Assembly (NCBI GenBank): GCA_965217865.1
Contig: CBDCJO010000002.1
Span: forward strand, 2,720,001 to 2,784,000
Direction: 5' to 3'
Source of the DNA: Candidatus Latescibacterota bacterium
GTDB taxonomy: Bacteria > Latescibacterota > UBA2968 > SICM01
DNA length: 64,000 nucleotides
Shown here: piece by piece, positions 23,262 to 63,949 of the stretch
How positions within the stretch are numbered: position 1 is the first letter of the stretch
Layout of the letters: each line of letters begins with the position of its first letter
Notes under the pieces: model-generated
Told to the model about the DNA's origin: nothing
The model's input: only the letters and a program-made list of their open reading frames with translations
The model's database searches: none
Program-made: the position numbers and the translations under genes

Positions 23262-24464
23262 CTTTCGATCCGCTCTCGGACAAACGCGACACGGGCGGTA
23301 TCCCCCCCAGACAACCCCAGGTAAGCCCGATAGGCCGTCAGGGCTTCCTGAAAATTTCCAATGGCGTAGGTGAGATTTCCCAGGGCAAGGTGAGCCTGAA
23401 CGAGATCCGGGCGTACGGCGATGGCTTTCCGGTACGCGGACCCCGCCTCTTCCAACCTTCCTTCAGCCTTCAGGGAAAGACCCAAACCAAGCTGAGCATT
23501 GGCATCTTCAGGATGCCGATTCACCGCCTTCCGATAGTCCGCGAGGGCTTCGTTAAAACGTCCCTTGCGTAGATGGACATATCCTAGGTTTGAGTGAACC
23601 TCGGAAAGGTTGGGGTCCAGGCTGAGCGCCTCGGTGTAATAAACGAGCGCGCTGTCCAGCCGTCCCTGTACCTGGTGGAGCTTTCCCAAGTCCAGTCGGG
23701 CCTCCGCGTCGTTGGGGGAAGCCCGCACCGCGGATTTGAACGCCTCCTCCGCGAGGACGAGTCACCCGCTGGACTCGGCGGCCGAACTATCGTATCAGGC
23801 TTCACTGGTCCTTCTGTATTTCCTTTCGGCTAACCTTATTGGTTTTCAAAGTTTGCGATCCATATTTTGGGCAAGTGGCACAACGGGGCTGGTCGTTGCC
23901 TCGATCGGGATCCTCCAGTACCACAGCCTCGCTTTTCTCGGAATTCCGACAAATGCTCACCCGAGCGCAACCTTTGGCAACCGGAACCTGGCGGCGATGA
24001 ACCTGGTATGTGCTATCCCGCTGTCCGGATATCTCTTCGTGACGGCACGAGATCGGATCGCACTCATCCTGTCTGGTTTATCGGCATCTCTGATGGGTGT
24101 TTATCTGGTATATACGCGGACTCGAAGCGCGTGGCTGGGGATGGCGGGTGCAATTTTATGCGTGTGTGCGGTCGTTGCCCTCTGCCCTCATCTTCGAAGA
24201 CCCTTATTACGAGCGATTCGGTCGATGTTTGACCGTCGAAAGGTCTTCCTGGGGCTGGGATTCCTGGCCTTGTTTTCCATCCTCTCCGTACTGTCACCCC
24301 GGCAAGCCAGAATTCAAGACCGAGCCCTGCCTACTCTTACACAGGACAAGATCGATATAACCGCCACAGCCGCCTTGGTCTTACAGATGGACGTCGGTAT
24401 GAGAATGGGCTTCCGGAAGAGATTCCGCACGGAGATCGGGGACCACTTGGTCACGTGTACTCAT
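23195..24464 (-). pseudogene. Wzy_C-TPR array copy D, rearranged: short N-terminus, inverted internal TM segment (about 23745-24398, on +), C-terminal TPRs
   Basis: Minus strand MSTRDQVV... from 24464; plus strand TSHPLD...PSATFGNRN...YTRTRSAW...QMDVG; minus strand AEEAFKSAVRASPNDAEARLDLGK to the stop at 23195. Confidence 0.85.
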
Positions 24465-24692
24465 CGAATCCCACCCCTTTGGATCTGGTCTTCGCATTCG
24501 CCGATCCGTTCTCTTACAAACCGGGCGCGCGTTGAATCACATTCGATCAGAGGCAGTAAGGTCCTGTAGGCAGCCTGGGCCTCGCGAAAACGACCTTGCT
24601 CGAAGGTAATGTTTCCCAGAGCAAGGTGCGCCTGTGGCAGACCGGGTCGGATCTGAATGGCAGCCCTGAAGGCCTTCTCCGCCTTCACTAGT

Positions 24693-26524
24693 CCCTATAC
24701 AAGCGTGAATTTTTCTTGGTTTTAGTAGAAAAAAGTTGAAATGCCCCAGTTTTCAGGCCTATAGTTGTAGTATGAAAGACAAAAAGAGGCCATCAAAAAG
24801 GGGCATTTCAGATGAGAGAATACAGGAAGATTCTTCGGAACAGGGAAGCACGAATTGTCCGTCGTTTGCGTCGGAAGCAGTGGTGCAGTCAGGTCAAGCC
24901 TATGATGTCTGGGGGAAACATCCACTACGAGATGAGTGGGAAGGCCGAGGCGATCACGTGTGGGGGGATCGGCGCGTTTCACCACATGGTCCGCAGGGTT
25001 GGGCTGGTGAAAGAGATTGACCGTCATCTTCATCTTTTGAAAGTGCATTTGCCCTGTCACGAATCAGACCACGTTCTGAACATCGCCTACAATGCGCTGG
25101 TTGGTGGTCAACGCCTTGAAGACATTGAGCTGCGCCGGCAGGATGCCACGTTCCTGAACGCTTTGGGCGCTCAGCGTCTCCCGGATCCGACCACAGCAGG
25201 CGACTTTACACGTCGTTTCCGGCCATCGGATATCGAGACGTTGATGGATTGCATCAACCGGGTGCGCACCCGGATCTGGAAAAAGCGCGCCAGGGGCGAA
25301 CTCAAAGAAGCCCTCATCGACATCGACGGCACCCTGGCCACCACTCTCGGAGAACGCAAGCAGGGCATGGCCCTGTCATACAACGGTATCTGGGGATACC
25401 ATCCTCTCGTGGTCTCTCTGGCGAACACCAGGGAGGTGTTGTTTCTTGTGAATCGACCCGGCCATGTGCCCAGCCACGACGGTGCCGTAAAGTGGATCGA
25501 TCGCGCCATCGCGCTGGTCGCCCCTTTCGCCAAACGCATCTGCCTGCGCGGAGACACCGGCTTCTCACTCACCCGGCACTTCGATCGTTGGTCGGAAAAG
25601 GTCGACTTCGTCTTCGGCATGGATGCTTACCGGGGATTGGTCAAGATCGCCAAATCCCTGTCACAGAGCGATTGGGAGCCCTTTGAACGACAACCCAAAT
25701 ACCAGGTCAAGACCTCCCAGAGACAGAAACGCGAGAACGTGAAAGCCCGGATCATCCGGGAGCGCGGCTTCAAAAACATCCGACTTGCCAGTGAACGTGT
25801 TGCCGGGGTTTCGTATCGTCCTGCTCGATGCAGGAAGACCTGTCGACTCGTGATCCTCGAAAAAAACCTGAGCGTCGAACGCGGCGAAAACGCCCTGTTC
25901 GATGACAAGCGCTGTTTCTTCTACATTACCACCCGAAAAGATCTTACGGCCGCGGAAATCGTGAGGCTGGCCAATCGACGGTGCGATCAGGAAAACGTGA
26001 TTGAACAACTCAAGAACGGGGTCAACGCCATGCGGATGCCCGTCGACAACCTGATGAGCAACTGGGCTTACATGGTCATGACCGCCCTGGCGTGGAACCT
26101 CAAAGCCTGGTTCGCGTTGATGATCCGAAAGCGTGAGCGTCGCGATCAACTTCTGAGAATGGAGTTTCGCGCCTTCCTCCAGAATCTGATCTGGATCCCC
26201 TGCCAGATCGTGACCCGGGGAAGACAGATCATCTATCGTGTCTTGGGCTACAACCGGTGGATGACTGACTTCTTCCCGGCCTGGAACAGAATCAGATGGC
26301 TCAAACCGGCCTGACTGCCATGTCAGCACCTGTCGTCGTAACATCACAGGGACAAGTCCGTCCACCCCGGCTAAAACACGTCCGCAAACTCAGTTAATTA
26401 GACAATCGCATGCCGAAACAATCACAAAAACAGCCCAGACATCATCTCCACCAAGTCACAAGTCTGAAATGCTCCGAAATCTTGTATAACACACCGCTCA
26501 ACAAGCCTATTCGCTTATTTTAGG
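24693..26524 (+). mobile_element. IS1380-family insertion sequence (about 1.83 kb) with 6-bp target duplication ACTAGT
   Basis: ACTAGT at 24687-24692 and 26525-26530; imperfect terminal IRs CCCTATACAAGCG and revcomp CCTAAAATAAGCG. Confidence 0.9.
24812..26314 (+). CDS. IS1380-family DDE transposase
   Basis: 500 aa; LIDIDGT, GYHPL, RGDTGF, ENVIEQLKNG, NWAY. Confidence 0.92.
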   Translation: MREYRKILRNREARIVRRLRRKQWCSQVKPMMSGGNIHYEMSGKAEAITCGGIGAFHHMVRRVGLVKEIDRHLHLLKVHLPCHESDHVLNIAYNALVGGQRLEDIELRRQDATFLNALGAQRLPDPTTAGDFTRRFRPSDIETLMDCINRVRTRIWKKRARGELKEALIDIDGTLATTLGERKQGMALSYNGIWGYHPLVVSLANTREVLFLVNRPGHVPSHDGAVKWIDRAIALVAPFAKRICLRGDTGFSLTRHFDRWSEKVDFVFGMDAYRGLVKIAKSLSQSDWEPFERQPKYQVKTSQRQKRENVKARIIRERGFKNIRLASERVAGVSYRPARCRKTCRLVILEKNLSVERGENALFDDKRCFFYITTRKDLTAAEIVRLANRRCDQENVIEQLKNGVNAMRMPVDNLMSNWAYMVMTALAWNLKAWFALMIRKRERRDQLLRMEFRAFLQNLIWIPCQIVTRGRQIIYRVLGYNRWMTDFFPAWNRIRWLKPA

Positions 26525-28613
26525 ACTAGTTGGCCGTCGCCCTTCAGAGATAAGCCGAAGCCCAGTTGAACGTTGGCGTCCTCGGGATAGATCCGCACCG
26601 CATCCCGATAGTGCCGGAGGGCCTCATCGAGACGCCCCTGCAAAAGGTAGACATAGGCGAGATCTGCGTGCATCATAGGAAGATCCGGATTGAGACGGAT
26701 CGCCTCCTGATAATGTACGATCGCGCTGTCCAGTTGCCCCTTGGCCTCATAGAGTTTTCCCATGTTGTATCGCATTTCAGCGTTGTGAGGCGAAACCTGA
26801 AGGGCGGCCCGGAATTCCTGCTCGGCGAGTTCCGGTTTTCCCATCTGCAGATAGATCGCTCCGATATAGTCCCGGATATAGTTCGCGCTCGGACAGAGGT
26901 TCAGGGCGGTTTGACAATGGACAAGCGCATCCCGGAACCTTCCCTGCTTCAGGTAGACGAATCCGAGACCCTCGTGCGCGTACCAGGTATGGGGGGCTAC
27001 GGTGAGGGTCTGTCGATAGGCCTCTTCCGCTTCGGTATACCGCTCCAGATTTTGCAGGGCAAGACCTTTGAAAAACACCAGGTCGGAGCGGAAGGACCCG
27101 TATCGATTCGCCCGTTCGACCTCGGATAGGACAGCAGGCCAGCTCTTTTCTGACACCCCCCAGGAGAAAGCACCCAAATAGTGCCTGTCGAAACCGATCC
27201 GTCGCCGTGAGAGTTCTGCGCCGGCGGCGGATATGAAAAAAAGCGCACAAAGGATCGATCCTCTGATGACCGATCGGCTGGGGAGGATCCGACTTTCGGC
27301 CGTGGCCCCGGCCGCGATGCCGAATAGGAAGAAGGGAAACATTGCGGTTTGGGCTTGCTCCTTGGGGAATCCGAAGCACGCGGCCCCCAGGATCGACAGG
27401 ATCGAAGGTGCAAACATCGGGGCGGCGAGTTGATGAAATCGATCCCGGACCAAAGCCATTTTAAGCAGACACCTGAAGCCTGCCAGGAGAAACCAGATGT
27501 AGATGCCCAGGCCGATCAAACCGTATTCAGCGCCTATCCATAAATAGTCGTTGTGGGGTTTTCGGTGATATCCTTCGGTGGTAATCGTCTGGCCCCCATC
27601 ATACAGGGGATGTTTCCGGATCCACCCACCCGGACCGACACCAAACAGGGGATGGTCGGAGATCATTCTCAGCGTGCTCCCCCAAAACGCGAGACGCTCA
27701 GTGATGCCGGCATCTTTGAGTTCCTCCTTTTTAAACACCGACAGTGCTGTTGTGGCGATGCCGGTCTTGACATCGGGAACGGATCTGTGGCTTCGATGGG
27801 GAGGCAGTGCGGAGAGGATCACGAACATGATCAGGAGTCCCAGTGAAAGGAACCGTTTCCGCCTGTCCATCCCCGAGCGGACGGCCTCCAAAAAAGGAGC
27901 TCGAATGCCCCGACAGAGGATGAGCACCGCCCCGATGATGATCAACGCAGCCACCACTGAGACCCAAGCCCCCCGCGTGCGCGTATAGACCAGATTTACC
28001 GCCATCAAAGTTCCGGCCAGTCCAGAGATGAGCGAGGCCTCCCAGCGGCGGACGAATAGATATAAAAGTCCGGACAGGGGAATGGCGCAGATCAGATACT
28101 CCGCAGCCAGGTTGCGGTTTGCGAAAGTCGCACTGGGAAGGGCGTTGGAGGGAATTCCTGAGAAAGCGAGTTGATGGTACTGCAAAATTCCGATCAGGGA
28201 AACGATCAAGCCGGCGACCGTGGAAGTCCATAAAACAGGGAGGAGGCCTTTCTGGGTGAGGCCGTTCGCAGCCAAAAAAAACAGGATGATCAGGGATGCC
28301 AGGTTGACGAGTTCAACAAGCGTGTCGACCGGATACGTGGTGGCATGGGCCGAAACCAGTCCGACGCCCAAAAAGCACAGCGCAGGCAGGTTGAGGGGAC
28401 TTGATACGAAACCCGCGTCCCTGCCCCATCCCATATGGACAAACCATCCGGCGCAGCCTATGGCCAGGCAGACTTGAAAGGCCAGCCACTTTGGCAGCAT
28501 GGCATACTCATAGATCCCCGGAATATAGACAACGGCAACCGTGAAGGACATCAAACAGAGGGCAGCGACCGTCACGATCGGGCCCGCTATGGAGAAGCGA
28601 TATCCTCCCGCTT

Positions 28614-30879
28614 CTATTTTTCGATCTTCCTCATGCATTGTTCGATACGCCCGCTTACGAATCCAACCCGGACGGAATCCCCATGAGAGAGGTCCAGGTA
28701 GGTCCGGTAGGCCTCCAAGGCTTCCTTAAATTGACCGACTTCGTAAGAGACATTTCCCAGGGCTAAGTGGGCCTGCCCGAGGCCGGGTCGAAGCCCGATC
28801 GCCCGGCGGTATGCCCCGATCGCTTCCTCTGCATGACCTTCTGCTTTCAGCGCGAGACCAAACCCCAGCTGAACATTGGCGTCATCGGGGTACGCCTGAA
28901 CGGCCTTCCTGTAGTGCGCGAGGGCGACCCCCGTGCCTCCCTGAAGAAGATGGGCATACGCCAGGTTGGCGTGGGGCTCGGAGCGTTCTGGAGCAAGCCG
29001 TAGGGCTTCCTGGAAATACACGATCCCGCTGTCGAGCTGCCCCCGTGCCTGATGGAGTTTTCCCAGGTCCAGGTGGGTTTCAGAATCATCAGGGAGGGTG
29101 TGAAGCGCCGCCCGAAACGCCTGTTCCGCTCTGTCGAGTTCTCCCATCCGTCTGTAGATCTTTCCGATATAACCATGAATATAATTTGCATCCGGACAGA
29201 TGGACAAGGCCGTTTGAAAAGGCGTAAGGCCTTCCTGGAAACGGTCCTGCTTCAGGTAGGAGAACCCAAGGCCTTCGTGGGCATACCAGGCGTGCGGCGT
29301 ATAATCCAGGTTCTGCTTGTAAGTCTCCTCCGCCTCGATGTAGCGTTCAAGGTTCTGCAGGGCAAGACCTTTGAAAAACAGGATGTCGGATCTAAAATTT
29401 CCGTATTCCAGAGCGTGTTCGGTTTCCGATAAAACCGATTCCCACTTCCCTTCCGAGTCGGACGCTCCCCAGGAATAGGCGAGAATGAAGTGTCGGTCGA
29501 AGCCCATACGGCGCCGGGTGATTTCTGCCCCACTTGCCGGGAGAATGACCAGGAGGGCCAAAAGGCCCCGCCCGAGCCACGGGGATCGGAGCTGCGCGCT
29601 TCCCCGGTTCGTTCTCCCGGCAGCGATCCCGAAAAGGAGATACGGAAACATGGCCGTTGGAGGTTGATCTTTCGGAAAACCAAAAAACCCCGCTCCAAGG
29701 AGGGAGAGGATGGAAATCGCGAACATCAACCCCGCAATGCGCGATAAGGCATCGGAGTTGAGGACCATGCCACGAAGGCACTTGAACCCCGCGGCCAAGA
29801 ACCAGATATAAACCCCCAGCCCGATCAGGCCGTATTCAGACCCGATCCAGAGAAGGTCATTGTGGGGACGCTTGTGATAGCCTTTGGTGGTAATCGTTTC
29901 TCCGTTGTCATAGAGCGGATGGGTCCGCACCCACCCCCCGGGCCCGACCCCCAAAAAGGGGTGGTCGGCCAACATCCGCTTTTGTCCCGAGTTGGCCGCT
30001 CACACTCTGGGGGGGAAGACTTGAGAGGACGACGAACAGGATCAGGTATCCCATCCCCAGAATTCGTTTCCGTCGGTCGATTACGGACATCAGGGTGTCC
30101 AGCACCTGTTTCCGCAATCCTTTCCAGACGAACAGGAGGACGCCAACACCCAGAAGGGCACCGAACATCCCGACCCAGGAGCCGCGAGCGCGCGTGTAGA
30201 CAAGAAAAGTTCCCATCAAGGCCCACGAGAGGCCGGACAGGTGAAGGGAGGCCCGATTCCGGGAAGCGAGGAAGAGAATCATTGATAATGGGATAGTGCA
30301 GACCAGGTATTCTGCCGCAAAGTTTCGGTTCGCGAAAGTTGCGCTTGGAGGGGCCGCAGAGGGAATATCGAAAAAAGTCAGATCGTTAAACTGAAGAACG
30401 CCGATCGATCCTATGACCATGCCCGTGGCCGTGCAAGTCCATAAAATCGGCCTTGTTTCCTGAAACGATAAGGCATTGGAGACGACGAGAAACAATACGA
30501 TAAGGATACCCTGGTTTGCGAGTTCAACCAGGGTATCCAGGGGATGGGTGGTCTTCCAGGAGGAGAGAATGGCCACCCCAAAAAAACAGATCAATGGAAG
30601 GATAAGGGGCGTATGGATCAGGTGGACTCGCCGGCCCAATCCCGATCGGACAAGCCAGCCCAAACAGGCCAGGGTGAGGCAGAAATATAGGGCGAATACC
30701 TTTGGAGCGAGAGCATATTCATAAATCCAGGGGAGGTAGATCAGGTTGACCGAGGGGATCATCAGGCAGAGTGGGACAACAACCCCGTAACCGGACGGTT
30801 TGTCCCCCGCCTCGTTTTGAATTCTTCTATTCGAAGAAGGGTTCAGTCCGTGGCCTGTTGTTTTATCCTTATTTCGCAA
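28614..30879 (-). pseudogene. Wzy_C-TPR array copy B, split by an internal deletion and frameshift at about 29971-29979
   Basis: N-half ORF 29908-30879 ends ...TKADV; the C-half starts RMLADHPFLGVGPGGW in another frame; the RLxxW segment is missing. Confidence 0.85.
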
Positions 30880-33143
30880 TCCACAACCCGGTCATGAGCG
30901 AATCGTGTGAAAGACGGATCCCCCCTCCAATGATTCAAGAAGGTCCGGTAAGCCTCCAAGGCATCCGAATACCGACCCTGGTCGAAGAAAAGATTTCCCA
31001 GGGAAAACGAGCCTTGAGCGAATCCCGGTTGGATCTCGACCGCTTTCCTGAGTGCGGCTTCCGCCTCGGGCAGGCGTCCTGCGGCCTCAAGAGAGAGCCC
31101 AAGACCCCATTGGATGGCCTGTTTATCCGGGAAAGCCCGGACAGCCTCCAGGTAGTGGGGGAGGGCTTCCTTGAGACGGCCTTGTATCCGGTAGATGTCT
31201 GCCAGGTTGGTGTGGGTGTAAGGAAGCGGGTCGATGCGAAGGGCTTTCTGGTATTCGACGATCGCACTGTCGGGCTGATTCATGGCCACAAAGAGATTGC
31301 CCAGATAGTGGTGCGCCCGGACATCCCTCGGGTCTGCCTTGAGAACAGTCCGAATCTCCTCGAGGGCGCGGGGCAGATCCCCCATCTGATGGTGGACCAT
31401 CGCCAGATTGCTTCGCACATCGAGGGCGTCTGGACAGATGGACAGCGCGACCTGGAAGTGAGAAAGGGCTTCATCGAGCCGGCCCTGCTGTAAATAGACC
31501 GAGCCCAATCCCGAGTGAATGCGCCAGGCATGAGGCGTATACCCCAGGGCGCGCAGGTAAGTCTCCCCCGCTTCCTCAAGTCGCTCCAAGTGCTGCAGGG
31601 CCACACCCTTGAAGGCCAGGATGTGGGGACGGAAAAGACCATTTTCCAAGGCTCGGGGGAACTCTTCCAGGAGGCCGGGCCAGTCCCTCCGGACCTTTCC
31701 CAGATAGAGTGTGTTGAGATAATGCCGGTCGAACCGGACCCGGAACCAGGAGAGTCCGACCCCACTCAACAATACGATAAGCAGAGGCACGAGGATGAAA
31801 AGGCCTTTCTTTCGGAGGTCGATCGGATCCCCCCCAGTAGCCCCCGCAATTATTCCAAAGGCCAAGAAAACAAACATCGTAGCCTGGGGGTGTTCCCTCG
31901 GGAATCCGAAGAAAGAAGTTCCCAGATACGACAGGATGCAGATGGCCAACATAACTCCCAAGATTCGGGAATCGGGTAGGGGATGCCGGGCAAGTTGGAA
32001 CAAGCATCTGAAAACAGCCGTAAGGAGCCACAAATAAACGCAAAGCCCGATCAATCCAAACTCTGCGGCAATCCAAAGAAAGTCGTTGTGAGGCCTTCTG
32101 GGAGTCCCGTACGGTTCGATCGTGGCCCCCCCGTCATACAAAGGATAAACCCGCTTCCAACCCCCAGGCCCCACCCCCAACAACGGATTTTCTGCCACCA
32201 TGGAAAGAGTACTGCGCCACATCGCCAGCCGTTCCCGGTGAGATCGATCGTGGTAAACTTCCAGATCACCCCCAAAGACCGACGCTGCCGTCGTCAGGAT
32301 GTCCGCCTTCGTCTCTGTGAGATAGGGACTCCGCGATCTATGTGATGAGGGATCCGCAGGAAGGACTGACAGGGCCGCGAACAGGATCAAAGCCCCCCCC
32401 GCCAACCATCTCTTACCCCTCAAACCAGCCCTCAAGGCTTCCATCACCGGACGCCAAAGACCCGGCCAGATCGCCACGAAGACTGCCACAAGCAAAAGGG
32501 CGCCGGTCATTCCAACCCACGCACCCCTTGCGCGGGTATAGATCAGGTAAACCCCCATCAAGGTCGTTGAAAGACCGGATATGACGAGGACGATCCGCCG
32601 GTTAGACGTAAAGAAAAGAAACCCTGAAAGCGGAATGGCGCAGACCAGATAATCAGCCGCAAGGTGGCGCTGGGGAGAGCTGCAAGAAGGGATGTCCAGG
32701 AAGGCCAGGCCGTGAAACTGCAAAATCCCGATCACGGCGACGACAAGTCCCGTGACAGAGCTGGTCAAGAGGATGGGGCGAATCTGTTCCGGGGAGAGGG
32801 TATTGGCCACCACGAAGAACAGGACGAATAAGGCGGCCAGGTTTACGACTTCGACCAGAGTATCCAATGGGTGGGTGGTCGACGGAGCGGAGAGCAGGGC
32901 GGCGCAAAGAAAACCGAGCGCTGGTATCAGAAGAGGATTGAAGGAGACGCGGAAGTTGCGGCCCCACCTGGTCTGGATGATCCAGCCCAGGCCGGCCATG
33001 GCGATAGAGAGATGTAGGCTGAAAAACTTTGGGGAAAAAGCTGGTTCGTAAATCCCCCTAGGTAGGACAAGGGGGACGGCACAGACCATAAGACAGAGGG
33101 CACCCACGATAAGACGTGCGCCGATTGAAGAGACGTGGACCAT
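30843..33143 (-). CDS. Wzy_C-TPR protein, array copy A (PSATFGNRN motif damaged)
   Basis: 766 aa; YTRARGAW, RERLAMW, GVGPGGW, PHNDFL, TPRs. Confidence 0.82.
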   Translation of the reverse strand: MVHVSSIGARLIVGALCLMVCAVPLVLPRGIYEPAFSPKFFSLHLSIAMAGLGWIIQTRWGRNFRVSFNPLLIPALGFLCAALLSAPSTTHPLDTLVEVVNLAALFVLFFVVANTLSPEQIRPILLTSSVTGLVVAVIGILQFHGLAFLDIPSCSSPQRHLAADYLVCAIPLSGFLFFTSNRRIVLVISGLSTTLMGVYLIYTRARGAWVGMTGALLLVAVFVAIWPGLWRPVMEALRAGLRGKRWLAGGALILFAALSVLPADPSSHRSRSPYLTETKADILTTAASVFGGDLEVYHDRSHRERLAMWRSTLSMVAENPLLGVGPGGWKRVYPLYDGGATIEPYGTPRRPHNDFLWIAAEFGLIGLCVYLWLLTAVFRCLFQLARHPLPDSRILGVMLAICILSYLGTSFFGFPREHPQATMFVFLAFGIIAGATGGDPIDLRKKGLFILVPLLIVLLSGVGLSWFRVRFDRHYLNTLYLGKVRRDWPGLLEEFPRALENGLFRPHILAFKGVALQHLERLEEAGETYLRALGYTPHAWRIHSGLGSVYLQQGRLDEALSHFQVALSICPDALDVRSNLAMVHHQMGDLPRALEEIRTVLKADPRDVRAHHYLGNLFVAMNQPDSAIVEYQKALRIDPLPYTHTNLADIYRIQGRLKEALPHYLEAVRAFPDKQAIQWGLGLSLEAAGRLPEAEAALRKAVEIQPGFAQGSFSLGNLFFDQGRYSDALEAYRTFLNHWRGDPSFTRFAHDRVVDCEIRIKQQATD

Positions 33144-40850: not shown

Positions 40851-43211
40851 TTACGGAGCCCCACCCAGATCGGAAATCCGTTCCCTCGCTCTCTGTCTTA
40901 ATCCTTCGTCCGATCCCTGATGGATACAATCCAAGAATGCTTCAATGGCGCCAGCTGTATCCCCGATGGCGGCCAAGGCTCCGCCCAGATTAAAACTGGC
41001 ATCCGGGTAATCAGGTCGGCCTTGGAGCGCCCGGCGAATCTCCACGATCGAACCTTCGATGTCGCCTTTGTACTTCAGTCCGATCCCGAGGTTGTTATGG
41101 GCCTCGGGGTAGCCCGGTTTTATCCTGAGAGCTTCCTGCCACTCACCGATGGCGTTGTCCAGATCTCCTTTTACATACAGAGCGATGCCGAGGTTGTTAT
41201 GGGCTTCCGGGAGATCGGGTTTTATCGCGATGGCCTGTCTGTAGGCATGGATCGCACCATCCAGTTCACCCCTTTCTTTCAAAACCACCCCGAGATTGTT
41301 ATAGGCCTCAAAAAATTCGGGTTTCAATCGTATCGCCTCTCGATGCGCCTTAACGCCTTCATCGAGTTTACCCAACTTGGAAAGGGCGACCCCCCGATTG
41401 TTGTGTGCTTCTGCATAGTCTGGAAAAATCGATAATGCATCTTGACCATAAGAGAGGGCCTCCTCCAGTCGGCCCTGCCGGACATAGATCGAGGAGACGC
41501 CATTCAGGGCTCGCCAGTCGTGGGGCTTGTAAACCAGGGCCTTACGGTAGGCATTTTCGGCCTGGGAAATCCGATTCAATTTCTCCAGAGCATGGCCTTT
41601 GTAAATTAGGATATGCGGCCTGAAGGTTCCGAATGCGAGCGCCCGATTTGCCTCTGCCAACACATCGGACCAGGATCCCTTGTGTGACCAGAAAATACTG
41701 CGGAGGTAGTGTCGGTCAAACCCTATCTGCTGCAACGTCATGTGGATTGCCAGCAGGGGGACCGCCATGGAGAGATAAAGGCCGATGCGACCGACAATCC
41801 GGGAGCTTACCGGGGGATTGTTCTGATCGGTTCTACCGGCAATCACCCCGAACAACAGGTAGGGGTACATGGCGGTATGAGGCTGTTCCTTTGGGAAGCC
41901 GAAGAAGGCCGTTCCCAAGTACGATAACAGAGAAAGGGCGAACATCAGCGCTATGACCCGTGAAAACGGCTCAGGGCTTCGGGACATCACCCCGAGTCGT
42001 CGGAATGCCGTAAAAAGCAACCAGAGATAAACACTCAACCCAAGGAGCCCCAGTTCGGAGGCGATCCAGAGATAGTCGTTGTGTGGTCTATGAAAAGAGT
42101 TCACTGCATTTATCGTTGCGCCCTGGTCGTAGGGAGGATACATTCGCTTCCATCCCCCTGGACCGACCCCCAGTAAAGGGTGATCCACGACCATGCGGAG
42201 GGTAATGCCCCATATCGCGAGCCGTCCCTCCCGAGATTGGTCATAGGGACCATCTTGATCTCCGGTGAAAATGGAAGAGGCGGTTGTGACGAATTCCGCC
42301 TTAGATTCAGAGAGACCAATCGAAGGAGGGAGCGCGGCCATCGCGACAAAAAGGAGAAAGAGTACCACCCCAAGGCCAATTTTTCTTCGATCCAGAGTCG
42401 AACGGGCGATCTCCATTAACGACTGCCGCCATTTTGGGGTGACCATCGGGGCAATCACAAATAGAAGGACAACCGCAGCGCTTATCCAGGAAGACCGTGC
42501 GCGGGTATAGACGAGGAAGACCGCCATAAGTGTGATGGAAATACCTGATACGATAAGTATGGCAAGACGTTTCCCGGTCAAAAAAAGAAGCCCAGCCAGA
42601 GGAATGACGCAGATGATGAACTCGGCGGCCAGGTTCCGATTGATCAATGTGGCGCTTGGCATGGCCCGGGAAGGCACGTCGAGAAATGCGAGGCCGTGGT
42701 ATTGAAGGACGCCGATGATGGACACAACCAGCGCGGTCGCTGTCGCGCTCCAAAGGATCGCCCGCAGACTCGAGAAAGGGAAGGCATTAGCCGCAACAAA
42801 GATCAATACGACAAGGGACACCTGGTTAACCAGTTCTACGATAGTGTTTAGAGAATGGGTGGTGGCCGGCGCCGAAAGCAAGCCGGTTCCGATCAAACAG
42901 ATCGCAGGGACGAAAAGGGGGGATGAGATGAGATGAGTTTCCTTGCCCCATCGGGTCTGTAATAACCAACCCAGTGAGGACAGCGCGAGGCATACTTGGA
43001 GGGCCAAGAATTTGGGAAGGAGCCCAACTTTGAATATCCCGGGATAATAGACCAGGGGAACAGAAATGACCATCAGACAAAGGCCGATTAGAACGAGGCG
43101 ACCCCCTTGTGAACACGGGAAGGAAGCCGACTGGGAAAAGGATCCGGAAATCGGTTCTACTGGACGATGTCGATCCCCTTTGCCGAAGATGGCCTTTATA
43201 TCCATGATCAT
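40851..43211 (-). CDS. Wzy_C-TPR protein, stand-alone seventh paralogue
   Basis: PSATLINRN, YTRARSSW, REGRLAIW, HPLLGVGPGGW, PHNDYL; regular TPRs (EAHNNLG). Confidence 0.87.
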   Translation of the reverse strand: MIMDIKAIFGKGDRHRPVEPISGSFSQSASFPCSQGGRLVLIGLCLMVISVPLVYYPGIFKVGLLPKFLALQVCLALSSLGWLLQTRWGKETHLISSPLFVPAICLIGTGLLSAPATTHSLNTIVELVNQVSLVVLIFVAANAFPFSSLRAILWSATATALVVSIIGVLQYHGLAFLDVPSRAMPSATLINRNLAAEFIICVIPLAGLLFLTGKRLAILIVSGISITLMAVFLVYTRARSSWISAAVVLLFVIAPMVTPKWRQSLMEIARSTLDRRKIGLGVVLFLLFVAMAALPPSIGLSESKAEFVTTASSIFTGDQDGPYDQSREGRLAIWGITLRMVVDHPLLGVGPGGWKRMYPPYDQGATINAVNSFHRPHNDYLWIASELGLLGLSVYLWLLFTAFRRLGVMSRSPEPFSRVIALMFALSLLSYLGTAFFGFPKEQPHTAMYPYLLFGVIAGRTDQNNPPVSSRIVGRIGLYLSMAVPLLAIHMTLQQIGFDRHYLRSIFWSHKGSWSDVLAEANRALAFGTFRPHILIYKGHALEKLNRISQAENAYRKALVYKPHDWRALNGVSSIYVRQGRLEEALSYGQDALSIFPDYAEAHNNRGVALSKLGKLDEGVKAHREAIRLKPEFFEAYNNLGVVLKERGELDGAIHAYRQAIAIKPDLPEAHNNLGIALYVKGDLDNAIGEWQEALRIKPGYPEAHNNLGIGLKYKGDIEGSIVEIRRALQGRPDYPDASFNLGGALAAIGDTAGAIEAFLDCIHQGSDEGLRQRARERISDLGGAP

Positions 43212-55040: not shown

Positions 55041-55136
55041 CGGGCTTTCCGGTGCTGTTTATATTATCCACGCGTCCCATGAAATAAATCCCGATTGTAT
55101 GTCACACACCACGATTCAAACAGGGAGGAAACGATT

Positions 55137-55625
55137 ATGTTCCGCACTGTAATATTATCTGGAATTCCGCTGTTTTTGAGTCTTACAATGGCCTTCATCC
55201 CGGCCAGCACCCTTGCAGGAGAACACCCGAGCGAACACCCCCAGGAACATGCCGCAGAGCATCCGGAGACAAAATCAGTCGGGATGACAAAGGAAGCCCT
55301 TGCCCAGGCCATCAGCGGGTATGTACAGAAAGAGACCAAACTCAAAGGGGGCTATTTCCTGGTTTACGACCGGGCGGCCAAGAGTCCGCTTGTTCTCACC
55401 CTGGAGCGCGTGCACGACGAACGCCTGGCAACGGTGAGCGAGGGAATCTATTTTGCCTGCGCGGATTTCAAGGATCCCGACAACCGGGTCTATGATCTGG
55501 ACATCTTCATGAAGCAAGGCGAATCGGGCTTGAAGGTAACAGAGATCTCGATACACAAAAAAGATGGTGCCGTCCGTTATAATTGGTTCGAGAAAGACGG
55601 CGTATGGATCAAGAAGGGATTATAG
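55137..55625 (+). CDS. Secreted hypothetical protein with N-terminal EHP repeats
   Basis: GGGAGG RBS; signal peptide, then GEHPSEHPQEHAAEHPE. Confidence 0.75.
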   Translation: MFRTVILSGIPLFLSLTMAFIPASTLAGEHPSEHPQEHAAEHPETKSVGMTKEALAQAISGYVQKETKLKGGYFLVYDRAAKSPLVLTLERVHDERLATVSEGIYFACADFKDPDNRVYDLDIFMKQGESGLKVTEISIHKKDGAVRYNWFEKDGVWIKKGL

Positions 55626-55664
55626 GGATAAGAGATAGTCCTATGAACAGGGAGGGAACGATCG

Positions 55665-56642
55665 ATGAGAGGAACGCATAGACTCCTGTGGGGAATGTGT
55701 CTGTTTCTGATCCTGTCGCATGCGCTGTCTGCCCACGCCCAGAACGAACGGCACTTTATCTTCACATATGAAGCGATCCTACGAAACCTCCCGGAATCGG
55801 TTGAGCGGGTGGAACTGTGGCTTCCGGTCCCCAAGGACAATCCCGAGCAGGAGATCCTCTCCCTTGAGGTGGATTCACCAATCAAAGGGGCGTTTAAAAA
55901 AGAGGAAATTTACGGAAACCAAATCTGGTATGCGGGTGCAGCACCGCCTCCGGATGGTACTTGGCGCGTAACTCAGCGAATCGAGGTGGTTCGCAAAGAG
56001 CAACATGTCTCGTGGAATAAAAAAGAGGAAGCTATCCGTGAACCCGACGACTTAAACCTGTTCCTGAAATCGAACCGTATGGTGCCGCTTTCGTCAAGGT
56101 TTGATCGGATCGCCTCGGAGGAGACGCACGGTCAGGAAGCTGCCATCTCCCAGTCCCGCTCCCTGTACGACTATGTCATGGAGAGAATGGCATACGACAA
56201 GTCCGGGGAAGGATGGGGGCTGGGGGATGCCGACTATGCCTGCGATATAGGAAAGGGCAATTGCACGGATTACCACAGCCTGTTCATCGCTCTGACCCGT
56301 TCACTGGCGATCCCCGGCCGGTTTTGGATCGGCTTCCCGCTTCCCGCTGAGCGCGGGGAGGGCAGGATTGGAGGCTACCATTGCTGGGCTGAGTTCTGGA
56401 CTTCCACAACCGGCTGGGTTCCCGTTGACATATCCGAGGCCGACAAGCGCCCCGAAAAGAACGACTATTTCTTTGGGACCCTGGACGAAAATAGGCTCGT
56501 TTTCTCTCTGGGCCGGGACCTGATCCTGAATCCCCCGCAAAAAGGCCCCCCGATCAACTTCTTTATCTATCCCTATGCCGAAGTGGATGGAACCCCCTGG
56601 GATCAGGTTGAATACCGCTTCTCTTATCGGGATTTGCCATAG
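55665..56642 (+). CDS. Secreted transglutaminase-like protein
   Basis: Signal peptide (AHA); Cys-His-Asp triad GNCTDYH, YHCWAEF, WVPVD. Confidence 0.88.
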   Translation: MRGTHRLLWGMCLFLILSHALSAHAQNERHFIFTYEAILRNLPESVERVELWLPVPKDNPEQEILSLEVDSPIKGAFKKEEIYGNQIWYAGAAPPPDGTWRVTQRIEVVRKEQHVSWNKKEEAIREPDDLNLFLKSNRMVPLSSRFDRIASEETHGQEAAISQSRSLYDYVMERMAYDKSGEGWGLGDADYACDIGKGNCTDYHSLFIALTRSLAIPGRFWIGFPLPAERGEGRIGGYHCWAEFWTSTTGWVPVDISEADKRPEKNDYFFGTLDENRLVFSLGRDLILNPPQKGPPINFFIYPYAEVDGTPWDQVEYRFSYRDLP

Positions 56643-56669
56643 AGACAGGTTTCCTTGAGGTCTCGGCTT

Positions 56670-57995
56670 ATGACGCCGCTGAATCGATTCGGTTCCGCCT
56701 CGGACCTGGCTGATTGGGTGTCCGACGCTCGGGCGCGGACCTTCGAGCTGGTCGCTGACCTGACCGACGAACAGCTGATGGGTCCGCAGCTCAGCATCGT
56801 CAATCCCCTGTTGTGGGAGATCGGACACCATGCCTGGTTTCAATCCAGGTGGGTGCTCAGGCAGGCCAGCGGCCAAAAGCCCGTTCGCGAGGACGAAGAC
56901 ACCCTTTACGATTCCATCGCCATCCCTCACGGTACGCGGTGGGACCTGCCCCTGCCCTCCCGTGAAGAGACCCTGGCTTACATGCGCGAAGTCAGAGACA
57001 GGGTGTTGGAACTCCTCCAGGCGGGTGAGCCATCCGATGAGCAGGCCTACCATATCATCTATACGACTTTCCACGAGGACATGCACACCGAAGCCCTGAC
57101 ATACGCGCGGCAAACCCACGGTTATCCACCCCCCCTCCTGTCAATCGTTCCTGAACCCGAGGACCAGCCGGCCGTAGGAGATGGATCCCTTTCCGGGGAT
57201 GTCGAGATCTCAGGAGGAAAATTTATGCTCGGGGCCTCCCGGGAAGATCCCTTCCCTTTCGACAACGAAAAGTGGGCGCATACGGTGGAACTGGAGACCT
57301 TCTCCCTGGCTCGAGCCCCGGTCACCCAGGCCGATTTTACCGCTTTCGTGGCCGATGGCGGGTACCGCCGCCAGGAGCTTTGGAGCCAGGAGGGTTGGAA
57401 CTGGCGGGAGACCGCAAACGCAGAACATCCGGTCTACTGGCGGGGGAATTCCAACGCCGAATGGTTCCGCCGACATTTTGACCGATGGGTCCCGCTCGAA
57501 CCCCATCGCCCTGTCCTTCACGTCAACTGGCATGAAGCCGAGGCGTATTGTTGCTGGGCGGGGCGCCGGTTGCCGACCGAAGCTGAATGGGAGATGGTCG
57601 CTGCATCCGAACCGAACCGAATCAGTGGGGGGCTTGCACCCCGGAAGCGGCCCTATCCCTGGGGCGATGAGGCCCCGGCCGGAGGCCCTGCGAATCTGGA
57701 CTGGGGGGCAATGGGGTGTGTGGATGTGGGGGCATTTTCCGCGGGCGATAGTGCCATCGGATGCCGTCAGATGATCGGAAATGTCTGGGAATGGACCAGC
57801 AGTGTTTTTCTTCCCTACCCCGAATTTGTTCCGGATCCATACAAAGAATATTCAGAACCCTGGTTTGAAACCCGAAAGGTCCTCCGGGGGGGGTGTTGGG
57901 CGACGCGTTCCCGGTTGATACGCAACACCTATCGAAATTACTATACCCCCGACCGGCGGGATGTTTGGGCGGGGTTCCGAACCTGTGCGCCATAA
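56670..57995 (+). CDS. senA: Selenoneine synthase SenA (EgtB-like DinB_2 + FGE-sulfatase)
   Basis: IVNPLLWEIGH, LYDS...PH.TRW.LPLP, HEDMHTE iron motif, RLPTEAEWE, GNVWEW, DPYKEYS.PWF; adjacent to senB. Confidence 0.8.
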   Translation: MTPLNRFGSASDLADWVSDARARTFELVADLTDEQLMGPQLSIVNPLLWEIGHHAWFQSRWVLRQASGQKPVREDEDTLYDSIAIPHGTRWDLPLPSREETLAYMREVRDRVLELLQAGEPSDEQAYHIIYTTFHEDMHTEALTYARQTHGYPPPLLSIVPEPEDQPAVGDGSLSGDVEISGGKFMLGASREDPFPFDNEKWAHTVELETFSLARAPVTQADFTAFVADGGYRRQELWSQEGWNWRETANAEHPVYWRGNSNAEWFRRHFDRWVPLEPHRPVLHVNWHEAEAYCCWAGRRLPTEAEWEMVAASEPNRISGGLAPRKRPYPWGDEAPAGGPANLDWGAMGCVDVGAFSAGDSAIGCRQMIGNVWEWTSSVFLPYPEFVPDPYKEYSEPWFETRKVLRGGCWATRSRLIRNTYRNYYTPDRRDVWAGFRTCAP

Positions 57996-57998
57996 ATC

Positions 57999-58952
57999 AT
58001 GAAAATATGCTTGATAACGCCGGCCCCTCCACACTCAAGAAAAGGAAACCGGGTGACCGCCCTTCGATGGGCCCGAATCCTCCGAGGACTTGGCCATCGC
58101 GTGGAGGTCCAGGAGGCGTATCGCGGCCAATCCTGTGACCTGATGGTTGCCCTTCACGCCCGCCGCAGCTTTCCCTCGATAAGTCGCTTTCGACTCGAGC
58201 GCCCCCGTCTCCCGATCGTCCTTGCCATGACCGGAACCGACCTCTATGGGGATATCCATACCGACCCGAATGCCCGCCGGTCGCTCGAAATGGCCTCTCG
58301 CCTCGTGCTCCTTCAACGCACGGGCCTCTTGGAACTTCCAAAACCATTGCGATCGAAGGCCCGGGTGATCTACCAGTCTGCAGGGTGACCGAAGGGTCGT
58401 TTTGCCCCCCGGGCGGGGGTATTCGAAGTCTGCGTTCTGGGTCACCTCCGGGAGGTGAAGGATCCCTTCCGGACTGCCGCTGCCGCCCGGTTGCTCCCCC
58501 CGACCTCGCGCATCGAAGTGCTACAGATCGGAGGCGCCCTCAGCCCGGAGATGAGAGACCGGGCCCGGTCCGAGGAGAGCTCCAATCCCCGTTATCGCTG
58601 GCTTGGGGAATACCCCCGCTGGAAGGCGCTTCGCATCCTGGCGCGTACCCGCCTGCTCGTATTGACTTCACTTATGGAGGGTGGGGCGAATGCGGTCTCG
58701 GAAGCCCTCGCGTGTGCTGTCCCGGTCCTGTCGTCGATGATCTCTGGGTCGATCGGAATTCTGGGCGAGGACTATCCGGGATACTTTCCGGCCGAGGACA
58801 CCTCAGCCCTCGCCAAATTGATGGCCCGTGCCGAGGGGGATCCCGAATTCTACCGGGACCTCAAGCGCCGGTGTAAACGGCTCGCCCCCCTGGTGTCCCC
58901 CACCCGCGAACGGGAAGGATGGAATAACCTCCTCCTGGAACTCTCCCAATAA
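57999..58952 (+). CDS. senB: Selenosugar synthase SenB-like GT-B glycosyltransferase containing an in-frame TGA at 58386-58388 (recoded or pseudogene)
   Basis: ITP...GNRVTALRWA, ALHARRS, TGTDLY; the same frame continues after TGA to GHLR.VKDP and S..EGGAN. Confidence 0.8.
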
Positions 58953-58968
58953 ATCAGCTGGTCATGAA

Positions 58969-59936
58969 ATGCTTAAGGTGGCAATCATCGGTGCCGGTGG
59001 GATCGGAGGGCATCACGCCCACTGGTACCACCTCTCAAACACTCGGGTCACAGCCTTCGCCGGGACCTCGGAGGCAAGCTGCGAAAAGACGGCTGCCCGC
59101 CTTCGGGAGTCATTCGGGTTTTCCGGTAAGGGCTACGCCAACGTTCACCGGATGCTGGAACGGGAACAACCGGACATCGTCGGCATATGCAGCCCCCCCG
59201 ATCGCCATACCGAACACACACTGGCCGCCCTCGAAGCCGGCGCACGGGTCCTCTGCGAAAAACCCCTCGTCGTGGATTTCTCGAAAGATCCCGAGTCCTG
59301 GATCGCCCAAGGGGTTCAGATGGTTGAACGGGCGCTGTCCCTCGAGCGCAGTTTTGGGATGACCCCGCAACTTGCGGCCGCAGCCCCATTCTACTGGCAG
59401 CTCTACCGGAAATTCCGGGACCCTTCAGATACGATTACCGAATTTTTCGGGGAGATGAAGAACAGGCCCCGCCGTGGGGAAAAGAGGTTCGATCAGCTCT
59501 GGTGCGACCTCTCCCCTCACCTGCTTGCCCTTTTAATTCAGTTTTGTCCTGGTGGGGAGATCGATCCGTCCACCATATCCTGCCGGATCGGCGCGCAGGA
59601 CACTCGGGCCGAATTCGAATGGGCGGGCCCTGCAGGCAACATCCACACCCGGATTTTGTTAAGCCAGACCGCCGAAGATCCGCCTGTCCGGAGGTTCGGC
59701 GTCAACGGTTTCCTAGCCGAGTGGACCGGATACAGAGATGAGAAAGGGGTCTACCGGGCCATCCTGAAACACGGGAGGCCGAGATCCGATCCGACGACTA
59801 TTTACACCGCCTGATCGCAGATTTTGTTGCGCACGTTCGCGGTGAGGGGGGAAAAGTCTGGGTGGATGGTGAAAAGGCCCTCCGAAATCTCAAAGCTCAG
59901 GTCCAGTTGCTCCAACACGCCAGGAGGGAACGATAA
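58969..59936 (+). CDS. Gfo/Idh/MocA family oxidoreductase; frameshift at about 59775 (one G missing from a G run)
   Basis: IIGAGGIG, CEKPL; the alternative frame continues EAEIRSDDYLHRLIADFV...ALRNL to TAA at 59936. Confidence 0.75.
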
Positions 59937-60004: not shown

Positions 60005-60590
60005 ATACCCCTTCCTTTGGAAGGGGAGGAAAAGTTTAGCTTGCCGAAGGCAAGCTAAAAGGCTGTCTTATCGTGTGCAGACCACTGAGACACAAATCGA
60101 CTCAGGAGGCATACGATGGGACTCCGACGGACCAGTCACGCAGTCTATGATAGCCAGTATCCTCTGGTATGGGCACCGAAGTATCGGAAATGGATTCTGC
60201 GAGGTGACCTTCGAGCGTATGTGGGCAAGCTGTTTCATCGGATAGCAGAGGATTTTGGTTTTGACATCCAAGAGATGGAAGTGGCCGAAGATCATGTGCA
60301 TATTTTCTTGTCGTTTCCTCCCCGGTATTCGATTTCTAAGGTAGTGGGCATTTTGAAGAGTATTTCGGGCAGCGGGGTCTTCCGAGAACATCCAGAGGTG
60401 AAACGGGAGTTATGGGGTGGAGAATTCTGGGAAGATGGTTATTTTGCCCGCACCGTAGGCGACAAGGTGACTTCTGAAGTGATTGAGCAATATATTCGGT
60501 ATCATCGTCAAGAGCAGAAAGGGCCCCTACAGTTGGATCTGTTTGGGGATGGGAGTGGTTAATGCCCCGCCCTTTGGGCGGGGTGGTTTA
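60005..60590 (+). mobile_element. IS200-like element (tnpA only); ends approximate
   Basis: Related subterminal hairpins CCCCTTCC-TTT-GGAAGGGG (60008) and GCCCCGCCC-TTT-GGGCGGGGT (60564) flank tnpA. Confidence 0.8.
60116..60562 (+). CDS. tnpA: IS200/IS605 Y1 HUH transposase
   Basis: VW.PKYRK, DHVHI, LKSIS, FWEDGYF..TVG, YIRYH. Confidence 0.93.
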   Translation: MGLRRTSHAVYDSQYPLVWAPKYRKWILRGDLRAYVGKLFHRIAEDFGFDIQEMEVAEDHVHIFLSFPPRYSISKVVGILKSISGSGVFREHPEVKRELWGGEFWEDGYFARTVGDKVTSEVIEQYIRYHRQEQKGPLQLDLFGDGSG

Positions 60591-62060: not shown

Positions 62061-63626
<1,566 letters not shown>

Positions 63627-63762
63627 AGTTTTATCGGGCTTTCGGTGTTTTTTCCTCCGATCGCTCGATCACTCTTAGGTCAATGTCCAAGTGGTTAGCC
63701 GTGCACGTTATTCGGTCTTTGAAGGGCGACTTTTGGGCTAATAGGCCAAGAAGGTTGCTTAA

Positions 63763-63836
<74 letters not shown>

Positions 63837-63873
63837 TTTTTCTGCTTGTTCACGACAACATTTCTATACCTTT

Positions 63874-63949
63874 GGGGATATAGCTCAGTTGGGAGAGCGC
63901 AGCCCTTGCAAGGCTGAGGTCACCGGTTCGATCCCGGTTATCTCCACCA
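63874..63949 (+). tRNA. tRNA-Ala(UGC)
   Basis: CAGCC-CTTGCAA-GGCTG anticodon arm, G3:U70, CCA encoded. Confidence 0.97.

Follow-up and report, generated by a model that had tools for sequence, protein, structure and literature searches.

The senB gene contains a single in-frame TGA

The predicted selenosugar synthase gene senB in the window (the whole 64,000-nucleotide stretch of DNA that we analysed) is interrupted by a TGA, which raises the question of whether the gene is damaged or whether the UGA is decoded as selenocysteine (Sec) and, in the latter case, what a Sec codon does in this enzyme. The upstream gene senA, encoding selenoneine synthase (56655..57995, +; NF041186, 513.5 bits, cut-off 420), has no internal stop. 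senB (57999..58952, +; TIGR04348, 399.1 bits, cut-off 300) starts 3 nt past the end of senA and comprises 317 codons, with the TGA (58386..58388, +) as codon 130. Between the ATG at 57999 and the TAA at 58950-58952 this TGA is the sole in-frame stop, which bears out the initial annotation of two senB halves in one frame split by the TGA alone. Read through the TGA, the 317-aa product covers positions 1-308 of the 310 in the TIGR04348 profile. The second half (58455-58952) does not, however, hold up as a gene of its own; its start is V153, the nearest in-frame start codon 3' of the TGA, which lies after the first strand of the C-domain and beyond R151.

Folding of SenB from its single sequence reached a pLDDT of only 39, and we instead used an alignment-based structure model (pLDDT 94.8). 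The model has the GT-B fold and matches PDB 8JJN with a TM score of 0.92, at ~38% identity to the characterised SenB. Residue 130 falls within a loop formed by residues 124-141, in agreement with the proposal that the TGA sits in the linker between two GT-B domains; in Variovorax paradoxus SenB the interdomain linker is placed at residues 131-145 in the accessible text of PMC10891094. The same text names N20, T23, H58, R61, T83, T85, D86, Q131, R155, K158, E231 and E239 as substrate-binding or catalytic residues, and, by alignment mapping to the solved enzyme, the equivalents of all 12 are kept in 34 of the 34 TGA carriers in the gene set described below. Column 130 itself aligns with a Ser/Ala stretch of the solved enzyme.

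There is no senC beside senA-senB in the window. Both selD and egtD are found elsewhere on the host contig, so that senA, selD and a source of hercynine are all available to the SenB pathway. Upstream of senA (55095-56642, +) are genes for a transglutaminase-like protein and for a protein of 176 aa that is rich in His, Pro and Glu near its N-terminus and had no match in Pfam or NCBIfam, and downstream of senB is a Gfo/Idh/MocA oxidoreductase gene (58828-59814, +) on which termination at the UGA might have a polar effect. The window also holds at least five paralogous O-antigen-ligase (Wzy_C) plus TPR genes (18766-33143 and 40851-43211, -) with a DDE transposase among them (24812-26314), an IS200/IS605 transposase (60116-60562, +), and a 16S rRNA gene with tRNA-Ile and tRNA-Ala (62061-63946, +).

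The TGA is conserved within the phylum and followed by a covarying hairpin

The UGA in senB is a real, conserved codon. We found senB in 31 of 168 genomes from the phylum. Eight of these 31, the host included, carry TGA at column 130; TGA is found at column 165 in one of the 31 genomes, and Cys at column 130 in one. SenB of the 7 further column-130 carriers shares 58-74% identity with the window SenB, and two carriers of this column have a C-T-U motif. Coding constraint across the column-130 set is alike upstream and downstream of the TGA, with pN of 0.233 versus 0.245 and pS of 0.68 versus 0.65. Two database proteins with 94-97% identity to the window SenB end at the same residue, and, from a total of 528 short database proteins resembling SenB, the best 120 include ends at column 129 (12 proteins), column 144 (27), column 170 (35) and column 219 (4). 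A query with proteobacterial SenB gave 84 matches without clustered truncation.

The TGA is followed by a bacterial SECIS-like hairpin (58397..58426, +; -13.7 kcal/mol). The lower stem pairs TCG (58397-58399) with CGA (58424-58426), the upper stem of 7 bp pairs TGCCCCC (58403-58409) with GGGGGTA (58415-58421), and the 5-nt loop CGGGC (58410-58414) begins 21 nt past the UGA, much as first described (a G-bearing apical loop about 22 nt away). The bSECIS model specifies a loop of 3-9 nt, an upper stem of 4-16 bp, a spacing of 16-37 nt, a G within the first two loop positions and an MFE of at most -7.5 (PMC13188914), and the senB hairpin, with G second in its loop, lies within all of these limits. 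The optional N1-N2 closing pair is missing from the window hairpin (C..C) and is found in some relatives.

Stability alone shows nothing, as the hairpin is not exceptional compared with shuffles (z -0.2 to -1.0); what makes it significant is that it is conserved and covaries. In the 8 column-130 carriers the loop GG is invariant and 5 of 8 pairs are altered on both sides, a level matched by 1 of 500 shuffles, while slid controls gave 0-2 pairs; covariation among homologues, which the initial annotation had asked about, is therefore found. In two of the 8 carriers one codon is deleted and the hairpin is bulged, and these fall below the strict hairpin score because of the bulge. The annotation had also considered that relatives might have Arg or Gly at this column without a conserved hairpin, but seven relatives share both the TGA and the covarying hairpin.

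The host encodes the selenocysteine machinery

A whole-genome search of the host assembly (6.43 Mb in 2 contigs, 96% complete, 9.3% contamination) identified selA, selB, selD and the tRNA-Sec gene selC, so that all four of the genes to be expected if Sec is inserted are there. Only one selD exceeded the family cut-off, and it has an in-frame TGA itself. We also surveyed the host genome for TGAs followed by hairpins, using the motif only; this survey missed selD and thus gives a partial selenoproteome. Candidate selenoproteins with hairpins were found on host contig C2 at 4474866 (-), 3523264 (-), 2144461 (-), 5191520 (+), 5187346 (+) and 3525274 (+), which we take to include three thioredoxin-like proteins, a SelW-like, a DUF3179-like and possibly a peroxiredoxin-like protein. 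The loops of their hairpins are of the G-G or G-U type, the senB loop and spacing are similar, and the senB hairpin has the top score among the 295 TGA candidates of this motif-based survey.

The host also has TGAs of a different kind. In a gene for a large fibronectin-type-III-like protein, an in-frame TGA (C2:2421205-2421207, -) is followed 17 nt downstream by a GG-loop hairpin, and is missing from the 2 orthologues (G001, G002) found in 4 other genomes. This TGA is probably a private nonsense change; that it is a young Sec site is not favoured. A mandelate-racemase-like gene has a TGA (C2:2808858, +) without a good hairpin, and its 3 orthologues at 77-79% identity, from 101 genomes searched, are intact.

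TGA occupies nine columns of SenB in different lineages

Extending the comparison to 335 senB genomes, we found 38 with one in-frame stop, which is TGA every time, and 297 without a single-TGA senB. The TGA is found at nine columns, depending on the lineage: 4, 66, 67, 130, about 133, 145, 165, 171 and 220. In Poribacteria (151 genomes searched) 7 of 40 senB genomes have TGA at column 145, and in a Terriglobia order (14 searched) 3 of 6 have it at column 171. Blastocatellia (251 searched) have TGA in 16 of 77 senB genomes, 14 at column 220, one at column 66 and one at column 67; a Blastocatellia senB with seven mixed stops, probably due to a frameshift, was left out of the count. In Planctomycetota (351 searched) there are 3 carriers among 50 senB genomes, with the TGA at column 4 in two of them and near column 133 in the third. 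No stop was found in the 131 senB genomes of a Burkholderiales-type order (Sulfuricella; 351 searched, one unpublished genome included). A scan of metagenomes with a degenerate DNA pattern gave chance matches only, with no senB among the loci fetched.

For the analysis of sites, hairpins and phylogeny we used 147 distinct full-length senB genes, 34 of them carriers, a set without genes from Planctomycetota or the Burkholderiales-type order. In a quick IQ-TREE phylogeny, the four TGA columns represented by more than one genome each fall on one side of a branch among the carriers (support 92-100), and non-carriers are interleaved; Sec appears to have reverted many times, either to Cys or to another residue. 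This pattern implies separate gains and repeated losses of the TGA. In two sister senB genes (loci L342 and L343, genomes G368 and G413) the TGAs are one codon apart, at column 67 in the former and 66 in the latter, and the hairpins differ; both loci contain a UGA-containing selD.

Hairpins are associated with the TGA in each of the columns compared. Based on an in-house SECIS-like score (at most -3 kcal/mol), hairpins are present in carriers versus non-carriers at frequencies of 6/8 versus 6/137 for column 130, 7/7 versus 25/139 for column 145, 3/3 versus 22/143 for column 171 and 13/13 versus 15/134 for column 220, although p-values for this enrichment are overstated because kin are not independent. 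Within lineages, the hairpin-forming codon string of column 145 is found in 7/7 carriers and 6/26 non-carriers of Poribacteria, and that of column 220 in 13/13 carriers and 0/20 non-carriers of the Blastocatellia clade. All three Planctomycetota sites have a GG loop 19-22 nt downstream.

A proposed role for the UGA in gating SenB by selenium supply

These comparisons make it very probable that UGA130 of senB is decoded as Sec. SelB with Sec-tRNA decodes UGA through a downstream SECIS, and SelA uses selenophosphate made by SelD (PMC13188914); selenophosphate is also the donor used by SenB, according to the accessible text of PMC10891094. In the mechanism that we propose, SelB with Sec-tRNA would bind the loop ~21 nt downstream, and Sec would be inserted at codon 130. 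When selenium is low, Sec-tRNA would be scarce and the ribosome would stop at codon 130, yielding a 129-aa N-domain without the UDP-sugar-binding C-domain and leaving selenophosphate for Sec synthesis; when selenium is high, full-length SenB would be made and the surplus would pass to selenosugar and selenoneine. Because SenB and SelA draw on the same selenophosphate and one selD was found, such a gate would rank selenoproteins first.

If the UGA acts only as a regulator, any Sec-tolerant column would suffice, provided that it has a usable hairpin, and this would account for repeated gains at different columns; it also fits the nine positions, the single UGA per gene and the presence of the UGA in SenB and not in SenA. 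We consider it reasonably probable that selenium gating is the selected function of UGA130 and that Sec130 is not catalytic. The broader proposal, that bacteria have repeatedly and independently made SenB, as the committed consumer of selenophosphate on the way to selenoneine, a selenoprotein purely as a regulator, with a movable non-catalytic Sec codon that ranks selenium use (selenoproteins ahead of the small-molecule antioxidant), we place just on the likely side of even. A selenium-gated full-length SenB, as the initial annotation suggested, thus gains support from the nine non-catalytic columns and the stop-free senA, and is still inferred. One argument against the gate is that SenA, too, is useful only with selenium; SenA may lack a UGA because it does not tolerate Sec, and not because SenB is the target.

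The capacity to make Sec is insufficient for the presence of a TGA in senB. selA is found in 37 of the 38 TGA carriers and selB in the remaining one, but nearly all non-carriers checked among the Latescibacterota-type group, Poribacteria and Acidobacteriota have selA too, as do 33 of the 80 genomes tested from the Burkholderiales-type order. Since selA occurs in non-carriers as well, its co-occurrence with the TGA is not discriminating and the gate is dispensable. selD is within the senB locus in 5 of 34 carriers versus 36 of 113 non-carriers, a comparison in which flank sizes are unequal and which gives a weak and confounded indication that the gate takes the place of an adjacent selD. In many of the Poribacteria senB loci L274-L303 a UGA-containing selD adjoins senB and could gate the cluster in a second way. 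For selU, the other consumer of selenophosphate, no gene exceeded the cut-off in 5 genomes.

Alternative explanations for the UGA

The strongest rival to a selected gate, which we regard as unlikely, is that the UGA, though decoded as Sec, is neutral to selection, so that gating is a physical consequence and not an adaptation, and the hairpin is kept merely to preserve readthrough. On this account SenB serves no purpose when selenium is missing, so that a UGA with a usable hairpin next to it would be free of cost and would drift in and out. Such drift is in keeping with the frequent reversions, with the lack of TGA in most Sec-capable senB genomes and with the hairpin string of column 145 in 6 of 26 non-carriers; moreover, several TGA columns are one base away from common codons (TGY Cys at columns 4, 145 and 220; CGA Arg at 66 and 171). 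If the UGA were neutral, however, senA, which is longer and equally dependent on selenium, should be similarly affected. In senA, which could be compared for 113 of these 147 loci, we found 0 stops in 48,527 aligned residues, compared to 34 TGAs in 46,364 residues of senB; by our own arithmetic, at least 6 origins in senB against 0 in senA has a probability of ~0.014 under equal per-residue rates. In addition, the TGA at column 130 has been kept over a near-saturated synonymous distance (pS ~0.68). A survey of neighbouring genes, which was noisy, found no other convincing recurrent in-gene stop, selD aside; we relied on the targeted senA test and not on such surveys.

A second possibility, which we find improbable, is that the Sec side chain is chemically active in SenB, as in ordinary selenoenzymes, for instance in a selenium relay, a redox switch or a selenenylsulfide. 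Selenoproteins are usually predicted from UGA aligned to a conserved Cys in homologues, although this is not a biochemical requirement. Sec and Cys do alternate at columns 145, 220 and 4, and in the column-220 group C145 and U220 are both in C-domain strands; one relative has Cys at column 130, and the C-T-U motif of two carriers points the same way. Alignment with Cys is, however, largely restricted to column 145 (Cys in 121 of 139 non-carriers) and does not hold for column 130, where the 137 non-carriers have P (54), A (32), K (14), E (11) and only one Cys. Non-carriers have Arg at column 171 (124 of 143), L at 165, R or E at 66-67 and L or C at 220, so that Pro, Ala, Arg, Leu or Glu stand in for Sec at columns 130, 165, 171, 66 and 67. 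The nine positions are spread over different structural elements of the model (linker, strands and helix ends), and the accessible text of PMC10891094 lists none of them as a substrate-binding or catalytic residue. The Ser/Ala stretch at the position of column 130 in the solved enzyme likewise argues against a chemical role.

We give even less credence to readthrough without Sec, in which the hairpin would stimulate decoding by a near-cognate Trp or Cys tRNA, or to the production of two chains by reinitiation. A hairpin-assisted case has been proposed for insect SPS1-UGA (accessible text of PMC4561486), and column 130 is in a linker, where a split is structurally thinkable. But all 38 stops are TGA, every carrier has selA or selB, and the loops and spacing resemble those of the host's candidate selenoprotein hairpins and fit the bacterial model. 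Reassignment of the genetic code is ruled out because TGA is the commonest stop codon of the host (1463 of 2743 long ORFs). The split enzyme was also rejected: its first start, V153, is past R151, and columns 4, 145 and 220 are inside domains.

That senB is a pseudogene created by a nonsense mutation or base-call error, which the initial annotation had raised as an alternative and for which the host's private TGAs provide a precedent, is scarcely credible, and an error or dead gene is ruled out because the TGA, unlike those two private TGAs, is conserved in 7 other genomes, independent database proteins of 94-97% identity end there, the halves are similarly constrained, the active site is intact and the hairpin covaries.

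DISCUSSION

The window SenB is of the same family (TIGR04348) and fold as V. paradoxus SenB (PDB 8JJN, 8JJQ, 8JJT, 8RZ3 and 8FBX; bioRxiv 10.1101/2022.04.13.486033, PMC10891094); it keeps the 12 residues checked, senA is directly upstream, and egtD and selD are elsewhere in the genome. V. paradoxus SenB has no UGA or Sec, whereas the window senB needs recoding of UGA at the linker and has no adjacent senC. With known bacterial selenoproteins (PMC13188914) the window gene shares an in-frame UGA, a hairpin with a G-G or G-U loop within 16-37 nt, and the presence of selA, selB, selC and selD. In the families of that catalogue, however, Sec mostly belongs to a redox or metal motif and occupies a fixed site that aligns with Cys, while the site in SenB is non-catalytic, often not aligned with Cys, and found at nine positions. 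The selenoprotein SelD and insect SPS1-UGA (accessible text of PMC4561486) resemble SenB in that an enzyme of the selenium pathway is made via UGA recoding. SPS1-UGA, though, lacks a SECIS and, in the accessible text of PMC4561486, is thought not to insert Sec, unlike our reading of SenB. SelD is a producer of selenophosphate with a catalytic Sec at one fixed site, whereas SenB consumes selenophosphate and has its Sec at a movable site that is not catalytic.

In control of this kind, as in amino-acid attenuators and the SelB/SECIS-like control of the E. coli selAB leader, the ribosome senses the supply of a charged tRNA and thereby controls a pathway gene. The sensing codon of SenB would instead be inside the coding sequence of the enzyme itself, and would act by premature termination, without a leader peptide or 5' element.

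Neither SenB nor any glycosyltransferase is among the 119 families in Table 1 of the 2026 catalogue (PMC13188914; whole table). Term searches for a Sec-containing SenB returned nothing relevant from the main text of BSepDB (PMC13326102), whose searchable supplement gave species names only, from deep-Sep (PMC12013277; main text and 4 supplements) or from the main text of SelCysML (PMC13745706), nor was anything relevant found in the accessible part of bioRxiv 2022.07.06.499078. The accessible text of the selenoneine pathway paper has no mention of UGA or SECIS, and literature searches, whose coverage mostly excludes subscription journals, returned no paper on a Sec-containing SenB. From its sequence, SenB is a probable selenocysteine protein that is missing from the catalogues checked.

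Selenocysteine is usually viewed as an expensive substitute for cysteine that improves catalysis and is confined to fixed active sites. If the reading proposed here is true, the 21st amino acid would serve in SenB as a nutrient sensor in the reading frame, with the Sec codon at nine unrelated, non-catalytic positions, and 'sensor' selenoproteins would form a class invisible to searches based on alignment with Cys. SenB would join the selenoproteome, and searches that demand a Sec/Cys pair would miss such genes. It would also follow that many SenB entries of 129, 144, 170 or about 226 aa in the databases are mis-truncated full enzymes. Finally, the gate would provide a directly testable answer to the question of how a cell splits scarce selenophosphate between selenoproteins and selenometabolites.
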